Assembly (NCBI GenBank): GCA_002269645.1
Contig: NIVC01004725.1
Span: 1-36,990 of the forward strand
Direction: 5' to 3'
Length of the DNA stretch: 36,990 bases
DNA from: Macrostomum lignano
Taxonomy: Eukaryota
Part shown: positions 1 through 10,666 of the stretch, one piece after another
Layout: every line of letters starts with the position of its first letter
Numbering within the stretch: the stretch's first letter is position 1
Notes under the pieces: model-generated
What the model was told of the DNA's origin: nothing
The model's input: the letters and a program-made list of their open reading frames with translations, nothing else
Database searches by the model: none
Translations under genes and position numbers: made by a program

Positions 1-242
1 TGCTGCACCTTTCCATTTGTAATAAAATTTATTATTTGCTGCCATCACATTGGAACGTTTGACCAAACCAGTGAAGTCGTTAAGATAGACATGGTAATTA
101 GCGCCTGGATCCAGGCGAATCGCCTGCTCTAATTTTTCAACAAACATCCCGTTTGAGTCATTAATTCGCCCAGTTATTGTAATAGGAATGCTCTCCTTAG
201 AGTGAGAAACAATATTATTAGTCTTTCAGCAATCGCTTCCAT
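1..242 (-). CDS. Minor capsid protein (penton), 5' portion, interrupted by 1-bp indels, runs off the window
   Basis: ATG at 242. Manual translation gives ...ESIPITITGRINDSNGMFVEKLEQAIRLDPGANYHVYLNDF..(W)SNVP.V.AANNKFYYKWK, matching the Polinton penton N-terminal pattern (PI.L...Y.V.L..F....+PN+...NNKFYY). It lies directly downstream of the MCP. Confidence 0.75.
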
Positions 243-260
243 TTTTCACAAAAAAAATAT

Positions 261-1536
261 TTAAACTTTACTGGATGAATTGTTGATCATGTTAAGCTTC
301 ACCTTCCTCTCAAATGCATAGACAATGTACAGGTCCACGGGTGTTGCGCAGTCCTTTCAATGTTAGTCACGATATTCACAGGGCTGTTATCAGTAGGCAT
401 TTGTCTGGCAGACACATCAGCGCCAAACATCGGATATAGAGTTCCATTGAAGAGCAGTGATAGCAATTCCATTGTTCTCTTTCACAGCCAAGTCGACAAC
501 TCGCTATAAAATTTGCTAATCTTGTTCTGACTGAAATCTCCATTTTGTGGCAGTGCAGGGTAAAGATTATCACTGATTTCATGCTGAATGGACCGCACGT
601 CTCCATGCATGTAGCGTATAATGCTATTTGGGTTTCTCATATTAATAATGATATACCTTGGATTGCTGCATGATCCCTCTTTAATGCAGATGTTTGTTCT
701 AGTTTCGTTTCGCTCATCTCGACACATGTAGGCCGTGTATGCAACATCAATGTCCTTCTCTATTGCCTTAAGATAATCGCTTTTAGTGCAGTCTTTGGCT
801 CAATGACTTCCAAATACAGCTCGATTCCGGTTAGCTTCACATCCATCCTAGTGTGGTCCGCCCCAGTCCACAACACTCTACTGCGATCATCTCTAGTCAG
901 TCTAATGTGTAGCTAAAGTTACTAGTCAGTCGATTAAATGTATTACAGAATCCACTCATGAATCTAGTGGTACAAATACATCAACAGACGATACTGCGGG
1001 TTCTTAGCAGCATCATCAGCACCTTGCAATGCATAGTTGTATCTCTTCTTCCTTTTTATAGCCACTGTCATTGATGTCTCCTTCTTTTTCATCTGCAATA
1101 AAACCCGCACCACTTCCCAACTGAATAAAATCAGGATTCTCGATCAAACAATGAGCGTCATAGACAATTCCAAAGTTGGCGATTCGCTCCAACTCAGTGC
1201 TCCCATTCGATACACTAAACTCCTTGAACATGTACGCCCAAAAGTTACTGATCAGAGCCACATCCGCATCATGCTTGTCAACGTTAGCACGAGCCGCATC
1301 CGCACCACCCTTTGTCTTGAATTGAAATGTCATATGGAAGCCGCTCTTAGACTGTGCACACTAACCAAAGACGAACATCCATTGTATGTAAATGTCAGTG
1401 TTTGACCAGGACCAAGATTAGTTTCATTCTGATTTTCCTGACTGGGAACTCTTACCTGAGTCGCTTTGATTGTGCTATCATCACTCAAAATAGGCTTGTT
1501 AATTTTGTAGAAAACTGGTGTCAGTGGGTCGTTCAT
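261..1536 (-). CDS. Major capsid protein (double jelly-roll, hexon-like), split by several 1-bp indels
   Basis: Fragments join into one ~420-aa protein: MNDPL..LGPGQTLTFTYNG (1536-1330), NFWAYMFKEFSVSNGSTELERIANFG (1333-1016), VFVPL..SGFC..FNR, VKLTGIELYLEVIEP, SNPRYIII, LYPALPQNGDFSQNKISKFY, YPMFGADVSARQ and VDLYIVYAFERKV, with a stop at 261-263. All are typical Polinton MCP blocks. Confidence 0.88.
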
Positions 1537-1566
1537 TTTTTAACTAAAAATAAAATAAAATAAGAA

Positions 1567-2774
1567 ATGAAGCGAAAAAGTACACAGCAGATATCTGAAT
1601 TGGAGAAGCTAGCACAAGCAGAGAAACGAGTTACCGGGCTAATAAATAAGGAGCAACAATCCTACAATGAGTTTGTCCAAGCAGCCACAGAGTTTCATAA
1701 ACCCGGGTATGGAGAAGCTAAGAAAAATATTGATCAGGTCAAAGAAACTATCGACGACATACAGGAAACCCAGGTGCAAAAGGCTTTGGGCAAAATTCCA
1801 GAAGCACCACAGATACAGCCGCAACACAACAATCACAACCACAACAACCACAACCACATCAATCACAACTAAAAGTGACAGATAACATTTTTGGACCAGT
1901 AGAGCGTGTAGAACATGATGGGAAATATGTATTTGGAATAAGTATGTGGAGAAAAAATATTTATAATGAACCAGTGGAATATTATATCGACATAAATAAG
2001 AAACATATTTCTGTTGTCAAAGGCTCGGAAACTAAGAGCATTCCTTTCACAGAAACCTTACTGATTTTATGACCAAGAACCAAGAGAGAATCTCGGACAA
2101 ACAGCTAAAGAACTACAGAGATCTAGTGATTTTTTCTCTTGCTAGAGATATAGAAATACTAAAGGTCCCAGAAGTTCTGAAACACATGTACGATAGCGGT
2201 GTCAACCTGACTAAATTCAAAAAGTACAAGCACTTTAAACAATGGTTCGATTTGCCAGATCAGGGGGAAGTCATTGATCAGATGAAATATCTAGAACAAC
2301 AACAGCAACCGCCACAACAGCAGCAACATTCCACAGAAGAACAAGTACTTAGTCAACTCGAGCAGTTAGACCCTTTGAAAGTAGCTGAATATAAAAATGA
2401 TCACCCAGATGCCTGGCAACTCTTAGAACAACACTCTCCAGATCGAATGAACAGAATCAAGCAAAGAGTTTTCACACCTCAACAAAGACAGGCGCCACAT
2501 GACAGTTCCATCTCTGAAAGTGAGCAGTCTTTTGCATCACCTCCCCAGCAGCACAAGCCCAACCAACTCCACAACCTCAAGACCAACCGCCTTCAACTGG
2601 AAAAGGAATAGCTGAAATCTACAAGCGAGTAGCGGTTCTTCTAGGAGCAGCAAAGACCGGAATGAAAGATGAGAATAGAAAAGAGTTCGTCACATCCTCA
2701 ATAAAATGCTTGAGAGAAAATACATCGATAAGAGGGCGAGAGAGCTTCTGCTTTCGCGGTTCAACAAAAAATAA
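1567..2774 (+). CDS. Conserved Polinton hypothetical protein, fragmented (ORF pieces 1567-1872, 1875-2072, 2069-2611 plus a C-terminal piece)
   Basis: Abutting same-strand ORF pieces. The reconstructed C-terminus AEIYKRVAVLLGAAKTG..ENRKEF..ILNKMLERKYIDKRARELLLSRFNKK* resembles the RL.LL..S..AGN....E...I...L motif common in Polinton ORFs. Contains Q-rich and N/H-rich low-complexity stretches. Confidence 0.6.
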
Positions 2775-2790
2775 TTTATTTCAAGTAAAA

Positions 2791-3168
2791 ATGCCACTTA
2801 TTTTCGAAAAAGACATTGACAAATACTATGACAAAGAGGAACTTAATCTCATTAAACGCGGATCTGGACTTTTCCCTGCAGGCCACTATCCAAGAAAAGA
2901 ACGCTCAGGGAACGGTCTTGCCGATTTGATCGCTCAGGGGGCCAAGATTTTTAAGGTCATTGGAGAGAACAAAGAGAACATCAAGAACGTTGCCGAAGCG
3001 GCTGGCAGTGTAGCCACAGCAGCCAAAAAGATAAAGGATACTGTAACACCTAAACAAGAGATTCAACCGCTGGCTCCGCTGGCCCCAAATCCAGACAAGT
3101 GTGGACCCTGCAGTCTATGAGAAGATGAGAGCTAGCATTAAAAAGGAAGCGGTTTCAAATTTGACTAA
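2791..3168 (+). CDS. Putative virion core/cement protein with GxG protease-site motifs (frameshifted near the 3' end)
   Basis: MPLIFEK..KRGSGLF..RSGNGLADLIAQGAKIFKVIG.., with a reconstructed end VDPAVYEKMRASIKKGSGFKFD* (stop 3166-3168). ATG in AAAAATG context. Confidence 0.65.
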
Positions 3169-3211
3169 AGGGTACTTTTCAAGGGTACAAGACATGTAAG
3201 AGTATAAGACT

Positions 3212-3292
3212 AGTCCTGAAATGACACATCTAAGTCCCAAAATGACACATTAAGTCCCAAAATGACACATTCAAGTCCCGAAATGACACATC
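3212..3292 (+). repeat. Four direct repeats AGTCCYRAAATGACACAT at 20-21 bp spacing upstream of the ATPase
   Basis: AAATGACACAT starts at 3219, 3240, 3260 and 3281. Confidence 0.9.
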
Positions 3293-3335
3293 TTCTAAAT
3301 GATTTATTATTTAATTTTTTTCAATCATAGAAAAA

Positions 3336-4129
3336 ATGGACTTCTCAAACGACTTCAATCCTCACTGGACGCGTAATCAGATTAAGTTTTCTCATCACGA
3401 GTCAATCCCGAGTCACTTCAGATGCATTGTTGTTGGTTCATCAGGTTCAGGTAAAACATTCAGAGTCTTTAACATGCTTCTTAGACCTGGCTTTATCGAC
3501 TATGACACTCTGCACATCTACTCTCCCACACTGTATCAAGATGAGTATAAAATGCTGATTTCTGGATTGCAAAACAAACTGAACAAAGAGGACATTATTC
3601 AATGTTTTAATAACCAAATGAGCCTTCCCAGTAACCCTGAAATTGTAGCTGCTGAATATGCAAAGCACCTCAAAGACAATGAAAAATGGCAGAACATTAA
3701 AGTGTTCACCTATGGAGATCCACAGGCTGATCCAAAGACCAAACTTCTACCCCAACCAGATGAGCTAGAAAAGGGAGAAAGCATTTGATCGTCTTTGATG
3801 ATTGTATGACAGGCCCACAGAAGCAGATAGAAAACTATTTTACAAGAGGGCGACATAACAATTGTAATGTAATTTACATTGCACAGAACTGGTTCGAGCT
3901 CCCGAACAAAACAATTCGTGGGAACTGCAATCTGATTCTCCTGTTTCCAACCATTCCACAGGATAGGCTAAAAAGATTTTACAATGAGGTCATTGCGCCT
4001 GCCTATTTTATAAATCCAACAAAAAACTCAAGCAGAAAGATTTCACAAGAGGAATTCGTTAATCTTTGCTATGACAAGTGGAACCAACCCTATCAGTTTG
4101 TCATGATCAACAAGAAAAAAGAACTGTAA
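3336..4129 (+). CDS. A32/FtsK-like genome-packaging ATPase (single 1-bp frameshift at ~3780)
   Basis: Walker A VVGSSGSGKT, Walker B (HL)IVFDD and the A32 signature FTRGRHNNCNVIYIAQNWFELPNKTIRGNCN. Adding one A in the run at ~3779 gives KGEKHLIVFDD. Confidence 0.95.
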
Positions 4130-4150
4130 TTTAAAATTTGCTAATAAAAG

Positions 4151-4890
4151 ATGTCTATTAATTTTGCAGGTGAATCCATTTCTGGCAACAGCGCTCTTAC
4201 ATCAGCTCAAATATCCATCCTTGACAGGCGATATATCAACAGCGACGAAAAGATCCCAGAGATCAAACTGAATAAAAACAGACTGAAAGCCCTGGAGGCG
4301 CTCCATGCACCAGTTGCAAATAAACATGGAAGATCTCAGGCTTAAAGTAGCTAGGCAGAAGTTTGAAAGTGATAAGCTTTATGTGCCGTTGTTAAACGCA
4401 ACTAATGAACTTAGGTCAGAAATAACTTCGGCAGTCTCGCAAATCAACAGCTTAAGATCGACAGTTAATCTTCTGGGAAATTCCACTGATAGACGGATGC
4501 GTATTCTTGAAGGAGGAGTTTTCACAAACACAGCTAAAGTGAATAATTTAGAAGAGTTCATGAACCAGTCAACAGCGTTGCATGATAGAATTAAAGAAAA
4601 CGTCGCAACCAACACAGGTAAAGTGAGGAATTTAGAAGAGTTCATGACTCAGTCAACATCGTTGCATGATCGAATCAAAGAAAGACTTGAAGCATTAAAG
4701 AGAAAGGATGTATCACACAGTAGCTATCTAAACGGAATGTATAGCTCTTGGGGTAAAATAACTAAGGAGGCTTGATCGTCTGGAGAGAACACTCAATCTT
4801 CGTGATATTGCTATTGATGAAGCAGAATCTACTGCTCGTCCGGTCATGTCTACAGATCGAGTAGAAGGAGCTCTGGACCCGCCGGAGTAA
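4151..4890 (+). CDS. Coiled-coil protein, possible fibre/spike, fragmented
   Basis: ORFs 4151-4345 and 4305-4775 plus a continuation RLDRLERTLNLRD. Heptad-rich, with a 28-aa (84-bp) tandem duplication starting at 4524 and 4608. Confidence 0.55.
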
Positions 4891-5055
4891 TCCGGCACGC
4901 TCTCAAACGTCAGCCCAGCCGCTGCCTGCTGGACTCGCGATCCTCCGGCGTCACGAGAGCCGCCTAGACAACCGGCGGTGCAGATGGAATTATCAAAAAG
5001 AAAACAGATCTTTCAACCGGTATTTTGTATTTTTTTATTTTTTCTAGAGAAAAAA

Positions 5056-5757
5056 ATGGCCCAACAAAATTCTCTATACGATCAGTCTCAATACGTTGAA
5101 CCTAAAATACCGACAGCACCAAACCAATGGCACCGAATTCGAACACACAAAGCCTGAATGCACCGAATCTGAATGCACCTCAATATGAGCAACAAAAACT
5201 CTACCCCGTCATTACTTGTAACTCTCACAGTTTCGACTAGTGGAGATTCAAAAAATGCGAGATGATCTTGAAAAAAATATTTTCCACAACACAAAGAAAA
5301 TTAAGCGCTATGACAGCCACTGTAAATTTTTCGACTACAGCAATATGATTCTAGGATCTGTGTGTGTTCTAACTGGGTCTGCTGCAGCTGTCTCAGTGTT
5401 GCCAGTCATCACAGCCCCAATCGCAATCCCGCTCGGCTCGCTGGTGCTGCATGTGGACTTATTTCAGCAATTACTGGAGCATTAGCGCGAAACAGGCGAA
5501 AAAAACTAAAGCAGCTACAGGAGAAGCAAGTAAAAGAGAAAGGGGTGCACACTTCAATCATAGGGTACATTTCAAGGGCAATCGAGGATAAGTTCATTTC
5601 AGAGGATGAGTTCAAAACCATTCAGGATCTTTATGAACAATCAATTCGAATGAACTTGAACATGGTCGGTACTGATGACATGAGTCAGCTGAAAATGAAC
5701 TCGAGAAAGTTTTCAACATTATGCGGAAAGAAAGGCAAGAAACGAGAAATTCGGTAA
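5056..5757 (+). CDS. Polinton-type membrane protein with hydrophobic hairpin, fragmented by 1-bp indels
   Basis: Reconstructed KLYP..SFRLVEIQK..KKIKRY.. [MILGSVCVLTGSAAAVSVLPVITAPIAIPL / AGAACGLISAITGAL] ..SIIGYISRAIEDKFISEDEFKTI. This LYP/FRL/TM/ISD.EF layout recurs in Polinton ORFs. Confidence 0.7.
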
Positions 5758-5783
5758 GGACAACGAGAAATGCACAATGAACC

Positions 5784-6185
5784 CTATGAAACACAGGTAC
5801 GAATAATTTCCTTGTAGGTCTTTCGTGTTTTGGTCATTGCAAACAAAACAGTCATGCACAGCTCACCGCAAATATCACTGCTAAGACCTTGGAGAATAAA
5901 GTCTGAGCGATAAATTTTTTTATTCTTTTTTCCCTTCATATAATTTCTTAGCTCTTCTGGTACTGCCGTCCCATAGCTATCGAAGTAATAACACTTGTGC
6001 TTGCGATCGGGATCAATCACCCAGCAAACCCAATGAGATCCTGGCTTATCAGTGGTGTCAAAGTTCATGATGCCGCATTCTTTTCTTAGAGGAAAATCAG
6101 GCAGAGTGTCCCTCATAAATATTCCTCTAAAGTTTGGGATTTCCAGTTCGTTAGCCAAATCTTCAAGAAAGTTATTTGTCGTCAT
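5784..6185 (-). CDS. Adenain-like (adenovirus-type) maturation cysteine protease, intact
   Basis: 133 aa with the catalytic pattern GSHWVCW (H), YYFDSYG (D) and Q..SSDICGELC (Q, C). Confidence 0.95.
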   Translation of the reverse strand: MTTNNFLEDLANELEIPNFRGIFMRDTLPDFPLRKECGIMNFDTTDKPGSHWVCWVIDPDRKHKCYYFDSYGTAVPEELRNYMKGKKNKKIYRSDFILQGLSSDICGELCMTVLFAMTKTRKTYKEIIRTCVS

Positions 6186-6238
6186 TTTTTTTTAGTTTTA
6201 TTAAACTTTCTCTTAAACCTAAACCTAGTCTCCACCTC

Positions 6239-9200
6239 CTAAACCCAACCTCCTAAGCCTAATCTCCAATGCCCGAACGGTAGACTGTTAATATTGTCAT
6301 CAAAAATGAATCTCTTGTTATCTGCACCTGACAGTCCAATCTTCTTTTGCTGAATTGTGTGAATAATATGGTTTTTAGATTGTAGCTTTGAGAACTCATG
6401 TGATGTCTTTTTGTTGCAATTCAAGGCGTCTCTGTATTCAGCTTCATTAATTTCCTTCCTAACCACACGTTTCGGAATTCCCTTTGATTTTTTAATTGGG
6501 TCTGACGACTCACATTTTACAAAATAGGACTTTGCTCTCAACCCAATGAATTCAGTGATTATGTCACCAGCAATCTCGTCCTTCATTTTCCCAATCACTT
6601 TCTTGTTAGTAGCGTCAAACACTTGATCGCCATTCTGTGTCCTGCAAGATTCATCATACTCAGACAAGTCAAACAAATCTTTTTGCTGCAGCATGTCCTG
6701 ATAAATGTCTTCTGTTTGAATGTCCATAATAAAACTGTCTGTGTCAGTGTACAAGAGTTTCATTTTATCCTTGTACTGCTGCTTCATGCCATAGAAGAAC
6801 TGGTACATCAGACGTTTTGATTCGTCGAGAACAGTGACACCTGTATAGATCGGCTTGCGCAGCGTCACCTTGGTTTTGTAAAATATGATCACACCTAAGT
6901 AGCTATTAAAGATATGGAGTTCTTTGAATGTTGGCTTTGACATATTTGCCTGAATAACAGCAGGCTCTGATGAGGTAACAAGTTTCAGGTTTGTTCTTTT
7001 CCGCTCATTCTCAAGAGTCTTGCCATAGACAGAGTTGTTGGCCAACTTAAAGAGGTTCTTGTCAAAGTCGTTGGTTGCTTTGGTCCTAAACTGGGTGTTC
7101 TTATCAATGTAGGGTTTCATCCACGCTTCCTCTGTAAATGTAAGAGCCCGGTGAACTTTGGTGACCCTGCAACCAAGTGAGATAAAATACTGAAGCAGTT
7201 TGTAATGGATTTTGTAACGTGTCTTGTTGTTTAGATTCTGTGTTAGTTTCTCTGTATGTTCTTTTTCTGTTCCTGACAGGTGCCAAGTTCCATTATTATC
7301 ATTGGGAGTTTCGATTATTTTCGGGCACTTGATGTTCTCTGGGAAGGGTGGAAAGTCAGAGAAATAGTCGTGAAGCTCTGGTGGAATGTAAACATCAACT
7401 TCATAAATGGCAGCCAATGAAAAGTCCCACTTTAGTTCTGATGAGGGTAGCCATCGAAAATCTCTAACTGGAAGATCTTGACTCATCGCCCACCCGTAGA
7501 GATTATTAGCGTCCAAGTAAGTAATGTAGTTTGAGGGCTGCTCCTTATTGTAAGATCAATGTAGGGATTGTTTGCTTTGCATACCTGTTAACACAAATTG
7601 AGATTCCCCCTCGCTTTGACGATTCGACAAAATTGTACATGTCAATGTCTGTAAGAAGTTCAATGTACCAATCTGGATCTTGATCCCATTTCATTTTAAG
7701 CAAAGATTCCCAGCTAGTGGCAGGCAGAGACACATAATGTGCTGGATCGAGGCCATATGCTGTGTACCAGGTGTATCTGAAGGTTTCAAACACATCGGCC
7801 AGCAGAAACACATCTGTGTAGAGGTAAAGCAGGTGATACTGGAAGAAGTTTTGACAATTAAAGTAATTATAGACATGCTTCGCGTGCTCATAGTCTTTGT
7901 CAGAGATTCCAGAGTCTGTTAGCTTTGAAAAGAATTTCTCCTGTGGTGGTAAACCTTCTTCAAATACGTGATACCCAGTAATATTTTCATAGGGGTAGAA
8001 GCCTTTGGTTCTCAGGAGTTTAAATGATTCATCACTGTTGTAATTTTACTTGCAAACATCTTTGTATATGTACATTGTTCATCTTTTAGATTCTTGCTTA
8101 GTTCGTCTAGACTGGCAGCTAGAAATTGATATGAATCCTTCAGTCTTATTTTACCTGTAATTGAATTATCCTGTTTAATATCAACACACTTAAACTTCTC
8201 CTTGGTCTCTGCGATGCAATCAAGGTGTATGTCTGGAATCATGCCGATTTTTTCAACTATTAAATGCATGTCATAGTTCTTTGCGTTGTGACAAAATATC
8301 GTTAGATCATGAATGTTCGATTTTAGCTTTAGATTACAGGTGTTATGCGCTGCACCTCTAAATTTCCCAGTAAAGTGGCAGTGGTCCCTAACGGTGGGGT
8401 TTTTTAAATCAGTGCAAGTTAACTGTTTCCTGCAGATGTGGCAATGAGTTGCTGATAGGAAATTGCTTTCATCCTCCTCAGACATACTTATTGGAACAGG
8501 TTGAAGGGTGCTAATCACTTTTTGCACTCTAACATTCTGGCAATAAACTGCTCCACACACTGCTCTCCAAAGAAATAATTATACTCAACAAGTCCTTTTG
8601 TATTAATAAAGGCATATGCTACTGAATTGGGGACATGTTTTTGAGTTTGAGTTTGTTTTTGAGTTTCTGGCACGATTGAGCATTCGAAATCAGCATATAC
8701 AACAAATGGGAGCTTCTCCATCTTGTGATAGTTCTTAAACCGGAGATACTTCTCTTCAGCTGAAGGAAGAGAGCAGTTTGTTGGGTGATCCTCGCATGAT
8801 AATTCATGCTCTGCTAGTTTTTCAAAGCGTTCAGGTCCACTGTAATGCTTAAGGCACAAGCGGCAGATGGCAACAGCCTCGTGATGATTATTCAACTGCT
8901 TGTGAATGAGTCTTGAAAGATCTTTAATCCAAACATAGTGAGCCTCCTCTAGTAAATTACCAATCACTAGAAGATCCACTTCAGTCCGCCTTTTCCCCTC
9001 AGGATCTAAAACGTCTTTGCTACATCTGACCGGTTGAACTTTCTCAGTTTTTTCACTCCACTCAAAGACTGTGATTCTAATTTTGTTATTAAACACTTCT
9101 TCTAGCTTAGGGATCTGAGAAATCGCCAAGCCTCCTTTGTCAAACCTGATTCCCTTCTTTTCGCATTCGATGAGATAGTAGTTGAAATAATTTTGATAAT

Positions 9201-10079
9201 TTGAGGTTCTTTCGGGGTGGTGAGGGACACTATCATAAAGAAGTGCAGAAAGAACTGCCCATAGAGCACAGCAATTGTCTTTATTTTTAACATTTATGCA
9301 AGCTTTTTTGCCGGCTAGCTTATGCGGGAGCTCTATATAAGAGGAGGCTTTAAGTGGGTCATATTTCATGACCATGACAGTCGCTCTTTGAATCCCCCCT
9401 ACGACCCATCCGGAACCTCTGGATGTAAACGCTTCAATTTTCTTAGTGACATCTTGAAGGAAAGGATCCAGTGTGTCTGTAGGGGTGAATGGCTTTGCCT
9501 TTGTTGTCATGTAATACTCGAGATGCTCAGTGGGTTTTGCAGGCATATAAAACGCAATCTTGAATGATATCTGTAGTTTAAAAGTCTTGCGTGTTTTGAG
9601 TGTGTGATCAACAACTGATTGGATGCTGTCTTTATAGTCGTAGATATTTGCGGTGGTACCGTTGGTGCCGTTAATTGGGATTGTGTACTCTATGTAATGT
9701 TCTGTAAACTTCCTCTGTGCAAAATTAATCTCTTCAATGGCAAGCTCCGACTCTTTTAAATGGATTAATTGCTCTAATTTCTCTTGTTCCTGCTTATTTT
9801 GTGGGTACTTTGCTTTTTCACCAGTGAGAGTTTCGTATTTGTTAACTAAGTTGCGACTCCTCTCTTGGTGTTCCTTTGCAGGATTTTGTATAGGCGCATA
9901 TTGGTTGGATTCTAATTGATTGATGATTTCCAACTGTTTTTCATAGCTTCCCAGGTGACCAGGGTCGGTGTTGAACTTTGTTTGCATGCTTCTCTTAGTA
10001 AATTACTTTTGTCTTGAAATGAGACGCCTTTTGAAAAATATTTGTTGACTAAATCTTTTGCTGGATTAGCTTTTGGCAT
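6239..10079 (-). CDS. Protein-primed family B DNA polymerase with terminal-protein-like N-region, EndoVII insert and exonuclease; split by several 1-bp indels
   Basis: Motifs YLDANNLYGWAMSQ, KLANNSVYGKT and YTDTDS; Exo YADFE, HNAKNYD and YLYTDVFLLADVFE; KASSYIELP..CINVKNKDNCCALWAV; EndoVII CHIC..VRDHCHFTGKFRGAAHNTCNL. Probable ATG at 10079. Confidence 0.97.
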
Positions 10080-10203
10080 TTTTTTCTCTAAAATAAAAAA
10101 AATTTTTGAGGGTGACCACCCTGATAGAAAAGTTGAACTGTTTCTACATCCTATAAGTAGCGTTAGGTTTATGAAGCTGGATAAAGTGGGGTTTTAAACC
10201 TCA

Positions 10204-10650
10204 TCACATCCGCATTATTGTAAACCCAGCATTGTGTAGTGTCATGATTGCTTTGACAATGTCAGACTTGCTTACAGAATTTTCATGCTCACAATCATCA
10301 AAATCCGGGCAGCCCTCTCCTGCCTTAATTGTTATACCTTTATCTCTTGCAATCTTTTGCAATTCCAGCTGGTGGGCTCTATCATTACCAGCTTTAACAG
10401 CAGTTGCTACACCTCCAGCTACACCACCTGCGGCACTTACAGCGCCTGCAATGATCGGAATAAGAGCTGCTAATGGTAGGATTCCTCCTGACTTTTCATC
10501 TGTGATGCTGTGTCTTTGCTCATTACACTGAACTATTTGCTGCACGGGATCGACTTTTACTTTGGCACCTTTAATTGATATAAGACCTGGTTTCTTTGAT
10601 TCAATGATTTTATTGAGTTTATTGAGGGTTCTAGTTTCAATCTTTGTCAT
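10204..10650 (-). CDS. Adenovirus pX-like virion protein, intact
   Basis: KSGG/ILPLAALIPIIAGAVSAAGGVAGGVATAV parallels the adenovirus pX C-terminal GG/ILPLLIPLIAAAIGAVPGIASV segment. Confidence 0.75.
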   Translation of the reverse strand: MTKIETRTLNKLNKIIESKKPGLISIKGAKVKVDPVQQIVQCNEQRHSITDEKSGGILPLAALIPIIAGAVSAAGGVAGGVATAVKAGNDRAHQLELQKIARDKGITIKAGEGCPDFDDCEHENSVSKSDIVKAIMTLHNAGFTIMRM

Positions 10651-10666
10651 TTTTTATTTTAATATT

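Follow-up and report, generated by a model that had tools for sequence, protein, structure and literature searches.

A Maverick/Polinton provirus of Macrostomum lignano with one-base gaps that are likely consensus errors and a major capsid gene that is probably broken

Contig NIVC01004725.1 of the flatworm Macrostomum lignano carries a provirus whose genes are interrupted by one-base frameshifts, and similar breaks occur in host exons downstream. Are these breaks errors of the assembly or marks of decay, and is the provirus intact? The window analysed here is the whole contig (36,990 nt, forward strand). The provirus in it is a Maverick/Polinton of the Alpha-adintovirus-like kind: genes of Maverick/Polinton type for an rve integrase, a packaging ATPase, a protein-primed DNA polymerase B (pPolB) and a double-jelly-roll major capsid protein (MCP) were detected, several of them with weak Pfam scores, along with a candidate adenain-type protease gene. 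Both this type of element and the type of artefact described below are already known. The features, with gaps in window coordinates, are as follows.

1 to 240, reverse strand: probable penton (minor capsid) gene, 5' part, cut off where the contig begins; gapped in the window at 217.
261 to 1533, reverse strand: MCP, double jelly roll; gapped nine times in the window, 428 aa where family copies are open.
1564 to 3190, forward strand: core-type ORFs; window-only gaps at 1825, 2064, 2552, 2691 and 3139 and one extra base at 3097.
3336 to 4129, forward strand: A32/FtsK-type packaging ATPase; gaps at 3772 and 4111, frame open in contig C3170.
4150 to 4960, forward strand: coiled-coil ORF; window-only length differences at 4297, 4760 and 4877, C3170 frame open (273 aa).
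5056 to 5757, forward strand: membrane ORF (hydrophobic stretch); window gaps at 5124, 5227, 5439, 5691 and 5709.
5784 to 6191, reverse strand: candidate adenain-type cysteine protease, open; PF00770, 20.9 bits (cut-off 21.3), E 3e-4.
6239 to 10079, reverse strand: pPolB with endonuclease-VII-like motif; five one-base gaps.
10204 to 10653, reverse strand: pX-like core protein, open; PF05829, 149 aa.
10667 to 11662, reverse strand: rve integrase, open; PF00665, 41.1 bits (cut-off 32.6), 331 aa.
11693 to 12121, forward strand: parvovirus-like phospholipase A2 (PLA2) ORF; PF08398, one window-only gap at 12042.
12659 to 13450, reverse strand: accessory ORF, 263 aa; region variable among family copies.
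14148 to 14703, no strand: right terminal inverted repeat (TIR); ~430 bases near-identical to the left repeat, ~555 including a diverged inner part.
14704 to 14709, forward strand: 6-base target-site duplication (TSD) CAGTTG; hexamer repeated left of the element in C3170.
19290 to 19530, forward strand: host RP1-like gene, doublecortin exon, outside the provirus.
31009 to 31226, forward strand: host exon of PLAT type, lacking one G of the run at 31183 in the window; error control.
36280 to 36540, forward strand: host exon of PLAT type with a base missing at 36426; error control.

The MCP matched PF21738 over 187-398 with an E value of 6e-5, below the cut-off. Foldseek comparison of its model, a low-confidence one with a mean pLDDT of 53.7, gave the PBCV-1 Vp54, Sputnik and mavirus capsids as best matches (E 1e-10 to 1e-8), and the closest database MCPs (44-78% identity) have no assigned names. 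The ATPase, read in the C3170 frame, exceeded the cut-off for PF04665 (26.6 bits; cut-off 22.8). pPolB matched PF03175 in two pieces, both just below the cut-off (E 1e-5 and 7e-5), and has the motif YTDTDS in the frame 6239-7555. Pfam searches gave no match for its N-terminal region (8515-10002; Alpha adintovirus PolB has an OTU-like N-terminal domain), the core-type ORFs, the 263-aa accessory ORF or the penton candidate. The latter ORF, which its position and resemblance suggest to be a penton gene, is 287 aa long in another insertion and adjoins the MCP. An earlier note on this DNA had described the integrase, protease and pX as unbroken, and all three are indeed open, the protease over 135 aa from stop to stop with visible His and Cys motifs.

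The window contig ends before the left terminus of the element, and a left end matching the right TIR was found in C3170 and C4439. No substitution separates the two TIRs over ~430 bases, and CAGTTG is single at the unoccupied site in the homeolog C249. The TIRs, the 6-base duplication and the empty site in a diverged homeolog together show a single integration here that predated the split of two near-identical haplotypes of the insertion, which differ by 0.13%. (The M. lignano subgenomes are termed S, L1 and L2; PMC10733133.) Among 18 other family copies examined, both ends were found in nine, and five of these have matching TSD hexamers that differ from copy to copy.

The insertion, with the same host flank, is carried by three contigs: the window, C904 and C3170. 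Across the aligned segments of the window and C3170, net length differs at 44 places, the window being shorter at 36 and longer at 8; 29 of the 36 shorter places lie in 1-5900 and 7 in 5901-13460. Across family copies, one-base losses number 453 and gains 60. The five pPolB gaps of the window (7555, 7576, 8041, 8526 and 9975) all fall at polymorphic sites, and C3170 has none of them, nor the ATPase gap at 3772. The earlier note had reported mostly one-base losses in short runs; such breaks exist and most are one base short, but they are far more numerous than the seven it listed. Of its pPolB sites, 7576 falls inside the run it named, and 8041 and 8526 are in two-base runs adjacent to those it gave; it had overlooked 7555 and 9975, and its ATPase break sits ~8 bases from the motif given. 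As that note had observed, no in-frame nonsense codon occurs in the window across the eight genes or gene parts classed.

The gaps fall where copies of the element differ by substitution. In pPolB, 53 of 87 gap sites are also sites of substitution polymorphism, where 8.9 would be expected and the maximum in 10,000 run-length-matched permutations was 19 (29 loci; L018 of 30, cut by a contig end, was omitted). The same was found across 13 segments (195 of 266 sites; 69 expected) and in the window alone (19 of 23 gaps; 7.8 expected), the remaining four one-base window gaps lying away from known polymorphic sites. Some pPolB gaps are recurrent, in up to 9 of 29 copies, and the window and C904 have in common the ATPase gap at 3772 and the pPolB gap at 8041. 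Because the one-base breaks lie mostly at copy-variable sites and are absent from a second assembly of the insertion, they are likely assembly errors. To judge from these alignments, most of the viral gaps likely reflect conflict among reads from different haplotypes or paralogs, which the long-read consensus resolved by omitting the base. Homopolymer runs, which the earlier note had favoured, do not hold up as the main cause, and slippage in them was rejected as the chief viral one: 37 of the 87 pPolB gap sites are in runs of one base. Programmed frameshifting was likewise rejected, as the gap positions are not the same in different copies, and the majority of copies, like the short-read contigs, are open.

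The contigs of the insertion bear traces of such mixing. C3170 has a family-rare allele at 156 sites, of which the window is gapped at 11 and has the family allele at 24, and C904 is gapped at 19 of 144 such sites; both contigs alternate between the rare allele, the family allele and a gap. We suggest that the consensus of the window and of C904 was built from mixed reads, which would create false frameshifts and also overwrite true variants. The coincidence of gaps with substitution sites offers a simple test for this artefact. Polishing trouble in heterozygous coding regions is known (PMC8092372), described there, as far as that source was available, without the exact gap-on-substitution signature.

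Host exons served as controls. At the G run 31183-31187, four of four short-read runs from three studies have only the longer form, at full depth and in one case in a spliced contig; this agrees with the earlier note, which had called the break an error, and rules out the five-G form as a real allele despite its presence in three of five assembly copies. The second host break, placed by that note at ~36403, is also an error but lies at 36426, where the frame is open in all three other assembly copies. Over 8,808 unique bases of host sequence, the window and C773b differ by no substitution and nine one-base indels. Homopolymer slippage fits the host G run and some of the gaps at non-polymorphic runs.

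Contigs assembled from four short-read runs are longer than the window at at least four sites (3772, 7575, 496 and 1348) among the 12 of 49 indel rows seen, none of the pieces listed spanning 8041. These contigs reflect the family majority, not the single insertion, and lose rare variants, so they neither exclude the window gaps nor reveal the capsid lesion described below.

The family comprises ~200 copies in the assembly, at 96-99% identity and ~16 kb long. The dN/dS comparison among copies that the earlier note had suggested gave an omega of 0.20-0.25 by simple counting, and 0.25 among private changes. Only one nonsense codon was found among 979 variant codons, against ~36 expected under neutrality. 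By these counts, the family is under purifying selection. With C3170 open, gaps on polymorphic sites, host breaks in error and nonsense codons nearly absent, the earlier note's choice of consensus error over decay stands for the one-base breaks.

A further lesion, in the MCP gene, appears to be real. A loss of seven bases is common to C904 and C3170, and its junction occurs at only those two places in the assembly; 202 assembly places span the site, of which the first 100 listed are all full length, and none of 24 other aligned copies is gapped there. As two sibling assemblies share the loss, this copy is likely broken for real. With the lesion, the reading frame would change at about codon 363 (of 428), and the second jelly roll would lose its three final predicted strands. 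This tail is conserved in seven of eight homologs and lies inside the PF21738 match, its strands being those of the low-confidence model. With the frame shifted and the strands lost, the copy would not be expected to make its own capsid. Near the lesion C904 is of poor sequence (93% identity to the window) and exits the element 90 bases beyond. The window's own letters have a gap of two bases, not seven, at ~445, which the earlier note had overlooked; it starts at the deletion junction and would be a hybrid of deleted and full-length reads. Once artefacts are set aside, pPolB, integrase, ATPase and protease look coding-intact, so that its replication, or help to it in trans, might in principle still be possible.

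The left arm past the end of the window contig contains nested insertions. A 5.1 kb insert is present in both haplotypes, and the arm probably holds a second Maverick. In C3170, moreover, the membrane ORF is interrupted at 5655-5667 by a non-LTR retrotransposon of 5.4 kb, and the penton ORF has a private 4-base gain at ~94; the window has neither. Collectively, these results make it likely that a single insertion from a young, ~200-copy Maverick/Polinton family is present in the window, with one-base gaps that stem mostly from mixed-read consensus and a provirus that is itself defective through the seven-base MCP loss. The insertion is thus probably not coding-intact, and the earlier note's suggestion that it may be is not supported, given the MCP loss in both sibling contigs and the nested left-arm insertions. 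Real indels in viral genes beside erroneous host breaks, which that note would have read as decay, were not found among the one-base gaps, but the MCP lesion, which it did not list, appears to be such a case. By the definition of an intact Maverick in PMC8097293, with all core ORFs unbroken, this insertion would fall outside, given the MCP loss and the penton gain and retrotransposon of C3170.

It is unlikely that all breaks are errors and the window haplotype is coding-intact, the seven-base loss belonging only to the other haplotype and entering C904 via mixed reads. C904 and the window are mosaic, so C904 could include C3170-haplotype reads, and the window lacks the penton gain, the retrotransposon and, in the genes classed, any nonsense codon. 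However, C904 shares the window's flank haplotype (one substitution in 3,698 bases, against five in 3,446 for C3170) and departs from C3170 past window position 353, which makes C3170-type reads improbable in that part of it. The start of the window's own gap at the deletion junction, the left-arm insert in both haplotypes and the probable second Maverick also speak against it. We regard it as very unlikely that other insertions were joined into a chimera over the leftmost few kb of the contig, which would make the capsid state of the window haplotype unreadable from the assembly. Gaps do become denser near the beginning of the contig (29 in 5.9 kb, compared with 7 in 7.5 kb), four of the nine other copies with both ends have non-matching target duplications, and C904 and C4439 run from the nested element into different flanks, but the window shares rare C3170 alleles as far as 506, 841 and 850 and stays collinear with that contig right up to its own first base. 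Hardly credible is a decaying pseudogene with real one-base gaps and unrelated host breaks: real lesions do occur at the insertion, certain gaps recur and most vertebrate Maverick loci are reported as degraded (PMC8097293), but decay predicts nonsense codons and an omega near 1 in private changes, and would not put gaps on substitution sites six times above chance, leave C3170 open at all of them or keep the TIRs free of substitutions.

If the window holds one defective insertion among many, the locus itself is of minor importance: elements of this type are already known, and many are broken. Selection acts on the family, which is young, large and carried by a model animal. It probably includes coding-intact copies, as far as coding sequence can tell; pPolB is open in none of 26 other copies in the assembly, so an intact copy is deduced rather than seen. 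The low omega and near absence of nonsense codons would fit recent spread by replication with functional genes. More tentatively, and with some doubt, the family may still be active, its ~200 near-identical insertions keeping capsid, ATPase and polymerase under purifying selection and looking broken only through assembly errors. If so, M. lignano, a culturable laboratory flatworm, would be a tractable animal in which to seek naturally made Maverick particles, reported as not observed so far (PMC8097293), and numbers of degraded Mavericks reported from long-read assemblies may be too high through this artefact, with real lesions hidden by it. For multicopy proviruses, uncorrected long-read consensus errs in both directions, so neither 'intact' nor 'degraded' can be called from such an assembly. 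In one run, depth gave no sign of extra free copies (~1,100-1,400 on element contigs, ~21 at the host locus for three copies), depth being no copy number. No RNA record was found to contain the element; a run guessed to be RNA covers it, for which DNA carry-over from ~200 copies could account.

The vertebrate Maverick/Polintons of Barreat and Katzourakis (PMC8097293) also have TIRs, a 6-base TSD, pPolB, integrase, ATPase and MCP, as well as the protease for which there is a candidate here, span a length range (12.7-24.6 kb) that includes the flatworm family, and show purifying selection on core genes. They differ in host, in number (1-38 intact elements per genome, against ~200 flatworm copies, intact or not) and in omega (~0.001 between species, against ~0.2 within one young family). 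The Alpha adintoviruses as described by Starrett et al. (PMC8502044) share an animal host, a PF03175-type PolB, probably adenain, an rve integrase, an FtsK-type ATPase, a double-jelly-roll hexon and parvovirus-like PLA2 and pX-like genes; their PLA2X is one gene, whereas here PLA2 and pX form two ORFs, one on either side of the integrase and in opposite orientation. Bellas et al. (PMC10120064) describe reads of near-identical viral copies piling on one insertion and giving a false frameshifted consensus, as here, and retrotransposons inside endogenous DNA viruses, as in C3170. In the present family the signature is quantified, and mixing appears also to conceal a true deletion. Among titles and abstract openings, no publication on this M. 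lignano family was found; repeat libraries or supplements may include it.

The pX gene is one base shorter at 10626 in C904, C3170 and C1335. We rejected this frameshift as a second shared lesion, as 13 contigs have the window's form and the short one recurs in the unrelated insertion C1335, which in turn was rejected as a fourth assembly of the insertion (94-97% identity, no left-arm insert). The short form is probably itself an artefact, and it shows that the sibling contigs C904 and C3170 can share one.

A Maverick/Polinton-type element fills bases 1-14703 of the window, which is the complete contig C4725 of an assembly totalling 764 Mb in 5,269 contigs. Six of its genes are placed as follows.

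1-240, minus strand: probable penton gene
261-1533, minus strand: major capsid protein (MCP) gene
3336-4129, plus strand: A32-type ATPase gene
5056-5757, plus strand: membrane ORF
6239-10079, minus strand: pPolB gene
10204-10653, minus strand: pX gene

The set is completed by core ORFs, a coiled-coil ORF, adenain, an rve integrase, PLA2, an accessory ORF and the right terminal repeat. The penton, core and membrane ORF names are presumptive, being given by position and resemblance rather than by a family match. In other copies, where the left repeat adjoins the penton gene directly, the element is ~16 kb long. A GC-rich stretch of ~120-136 bases (4858-4993), forming the 3' end of the coiled-coil ORF, was found in some family copies only, and short-read contigs jump over it or switch strand across it. 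The accessory region next to the right repeat (12150-14100) has a 263-aa ORF and 19-base repeats and was matched throughout in one of 20 other right arms fetched; this cargo differs from copy to copy.

The same right host flank borders the element in two other contigs, C904 and C3170. C3170 holds both element ends with an identical 6-base duplication on either side, C4439 holds the left junction, and C249, a diverged homeolog, holds the empty site. In unique host DNA the window differed by 1 substitution in 3,698 bases from C904, 0 in 8,808 from C773b (another assembly copy of the host gene), 12 in 9,052 from C3170 and 174 in 5,316 from C249. Two short-read runs of one sample gave a depth ratio of ~2:1 for window-like to C249-like sequence, and a third run gave 1.5:1. 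Together, flank divergence and depth show that the insertion is carried by two near-identical haplotypes and is absent from one homeolog, in agreement with the three subgenomes that PMC10733133 describes for Macrostomum lignano. C3170's left and right repeats are free of substitutions over their outer 430 bases, differing there by one missing repeat unit and run lengths; the insertion is young.

The breaks in the viral genes noted earlier were borne out in part, and the one-base breaks among them are almost certainly assembly artefacts. Over 18.2 kb, 21 substitutions and 68 gap openings separate the window from C904. Across 29 copies of pPolB, each with at least one frame break, there were 775 substitutions, 171 one-base losses and 7 one-base gains. 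Fifty-three of the 87 distinct loss sites fall in a run that bears a substitution in another copy, compared to 8.9 expected for equal run lengths and a maximum of 19 in 10,000 permutations. All five pPolB gaps of the window lie at such sites, four exactly at C3170's own allele. For 13 segments combined (453 losses, 60 gains), 195 of 266 loss sites were on substitution sites (69 expected), as were 19 of the window's 23 gaps (7.8 expected). Of 156 sites with a family-rare C3170 allele, the window agrees with C3170 at 120 and with the family at 24; it has a gap at 11 more and a different letter at one. We infer that this mixture is the product of a consensus built from mixed reads, a cause of false frameshifts also described in PMC10120064. 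Single extra bases at 3097, 4297 and 4760, seen in none of 15-30 other copies, probably reflect the same artefact acting as a gain.

Short-read contigs from four studies, which reflect the family majority rather than the window's own copy, exceeded the window in length at 3772, 7575, 496 and 1348, at whole depth in three runs and part of the depth in the fourth; listed pieces span 7555-7576, 8526 and 9975 with matching gap numbers. Length errors in the element fall from ~5 per kb close to the contig start to ~1 per kb deeper inside, at or above the ~1 per kb by which two assemblies of unique host DNA differ.

Selection estimates led to the same verdict as the gap statistics. By simple counting (transition weight 3, a few divergent copies included) over 979 variant codons in eight genes or gene parts, omega was 0.20 for variants in at least three insertions, 0.23 for those in two and 0.25 for those in a single insertion. 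The variant codons include one stop, compared to ~36 expected without selection. A 1.3 kb pPolB piece had 292 candidates in the assembly, the 40 scored being 96-100% identical, and target duplications match, and differ between copies, in five of nine copies with both ends. In the assembly as it stands, the frame was open in 12 of 24 other copies for MCP, 18/30 for ATPase, 14/19 for integrase, 11/20 for pX and 0/26 for pPolB, the longest gene, as expected if a few artefacts per kb land at random. Coding-intact family copies likely exist.

The earlier note had taken two breaks in the host gene as signs of assembly error, and both are. Three of five assembly copies have a short G run at 31183; in each of four short-read runs the sole spanning contig has the long form, with a depth equal to that of all copies combined, and so does a spliced contig. 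The second break lies at 36426, rather than ~36403, and is missing from all three other copies. The note's preference for error over decay is supported by the gap coincidence, omega and short-read contigs, with a main cause other than the one it proposed. The host gene is RP1-like, with doublecortin and PLAT-type exons (19290-36750), and begins ~4.6 kb from the element's right end. Its exon at 19291-19530 is identical to proteins labelled Macrostomum lignano oxygen-regulated protein 1, exons at ~30157, 31009-31226 and 32993 are joined in spliced contigs, and its introns are packed with minisatellites. At 35552-35868, telomere-like TTAGGG-containing 19-base repeats inside a 51-base inverted repeat resemble a small mobile element. 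At G000:C773:356001-406000, two near-identical host-gene haplotypes lie tail to tail with a run of N between, probably a scaffolding join.

The suggestion that the provirus may be intact was not supported for this insertion. C3170, which shows few length differences from the family, has a 7-base loss in MCP at ~446-452. The identical junction occurs in C904 and, within the assembly, is limited to these two siblings; 202 places match a pattern spanning the site, and all of the first 100 listed are full length. The window has a 2-base gap starting at the same junction and then family-like sequence, as would a hybrid of deleted and full-length reads. The artefact is of a known type, with the useful twist that mixing probably also masks a true deletion. 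The loss shifts the frame near codon 363 of 428, with a stop ~24 codons later, removing a tail that is conserved in seven of eight homologs. This tail is predicted to form three strands and is the better-supported part of a low-confidence structure model whose best matches are double-jelly-roll capsids. On this sequence evidence the insertion is probably not intact. Against a defective insertion, the loss is an observation on two assembly contigs, C904 is poor near the lesion and becomes unrelated sequence beyond window 353, and a one-base artefact can be common to both siblings, as pX 10626 shows; an intact provirus here nevertheless seems unlikely. In C904 (18530-20290), the position expected for the MCP tail and the greater part of the penton gene is taken by 1.76 kb of unrelated, AT-rich DNA that includes a repeated element; this is either a real replacement or a chimeric read.

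Further lesions and nested insertions were seen in the contigs of this insertion. In C3170 the penton gene has a private 4-base gain, and the membrane ORF, in this haplotype only, carries a 5.4 kb non-LTR retrotransposon at window 5655-5667 with a 12-13-base target duplication. In both haplotypes ~5 kb of non-coding DNA, absent from the other copies examined, separates the left repeat from the penton gene. This left-arm insert (L034:2402-7531; 5.1 kb, AT-rich) is bounded by short terminal inverted repeats, has TA at each end and contains two tandem arrays, and we take it to resemble a non-autonomous DNA transposon. Within it, in C4439 and C904, starts a second, unrelated Maverick of ~17.7 kb, a Maverick nested in a Maverick.

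L035:3986-9360 (G000:C3170:77986-83361): retrotransposon; open 337-aa ORF1 and open 1,235-aa endonuclease/RT/RNase H ORF2
G000:C4439:3913-21556 (L105-L107) and G000:C904:20938-38674: second Maverick; 315-base inverted repeats and its own pPolB, pX, protease-like and capsid-like ORFs

C4439 and C904 continue from the second Maverick into flanks that differ, which makes at least one of the joins chimeric.
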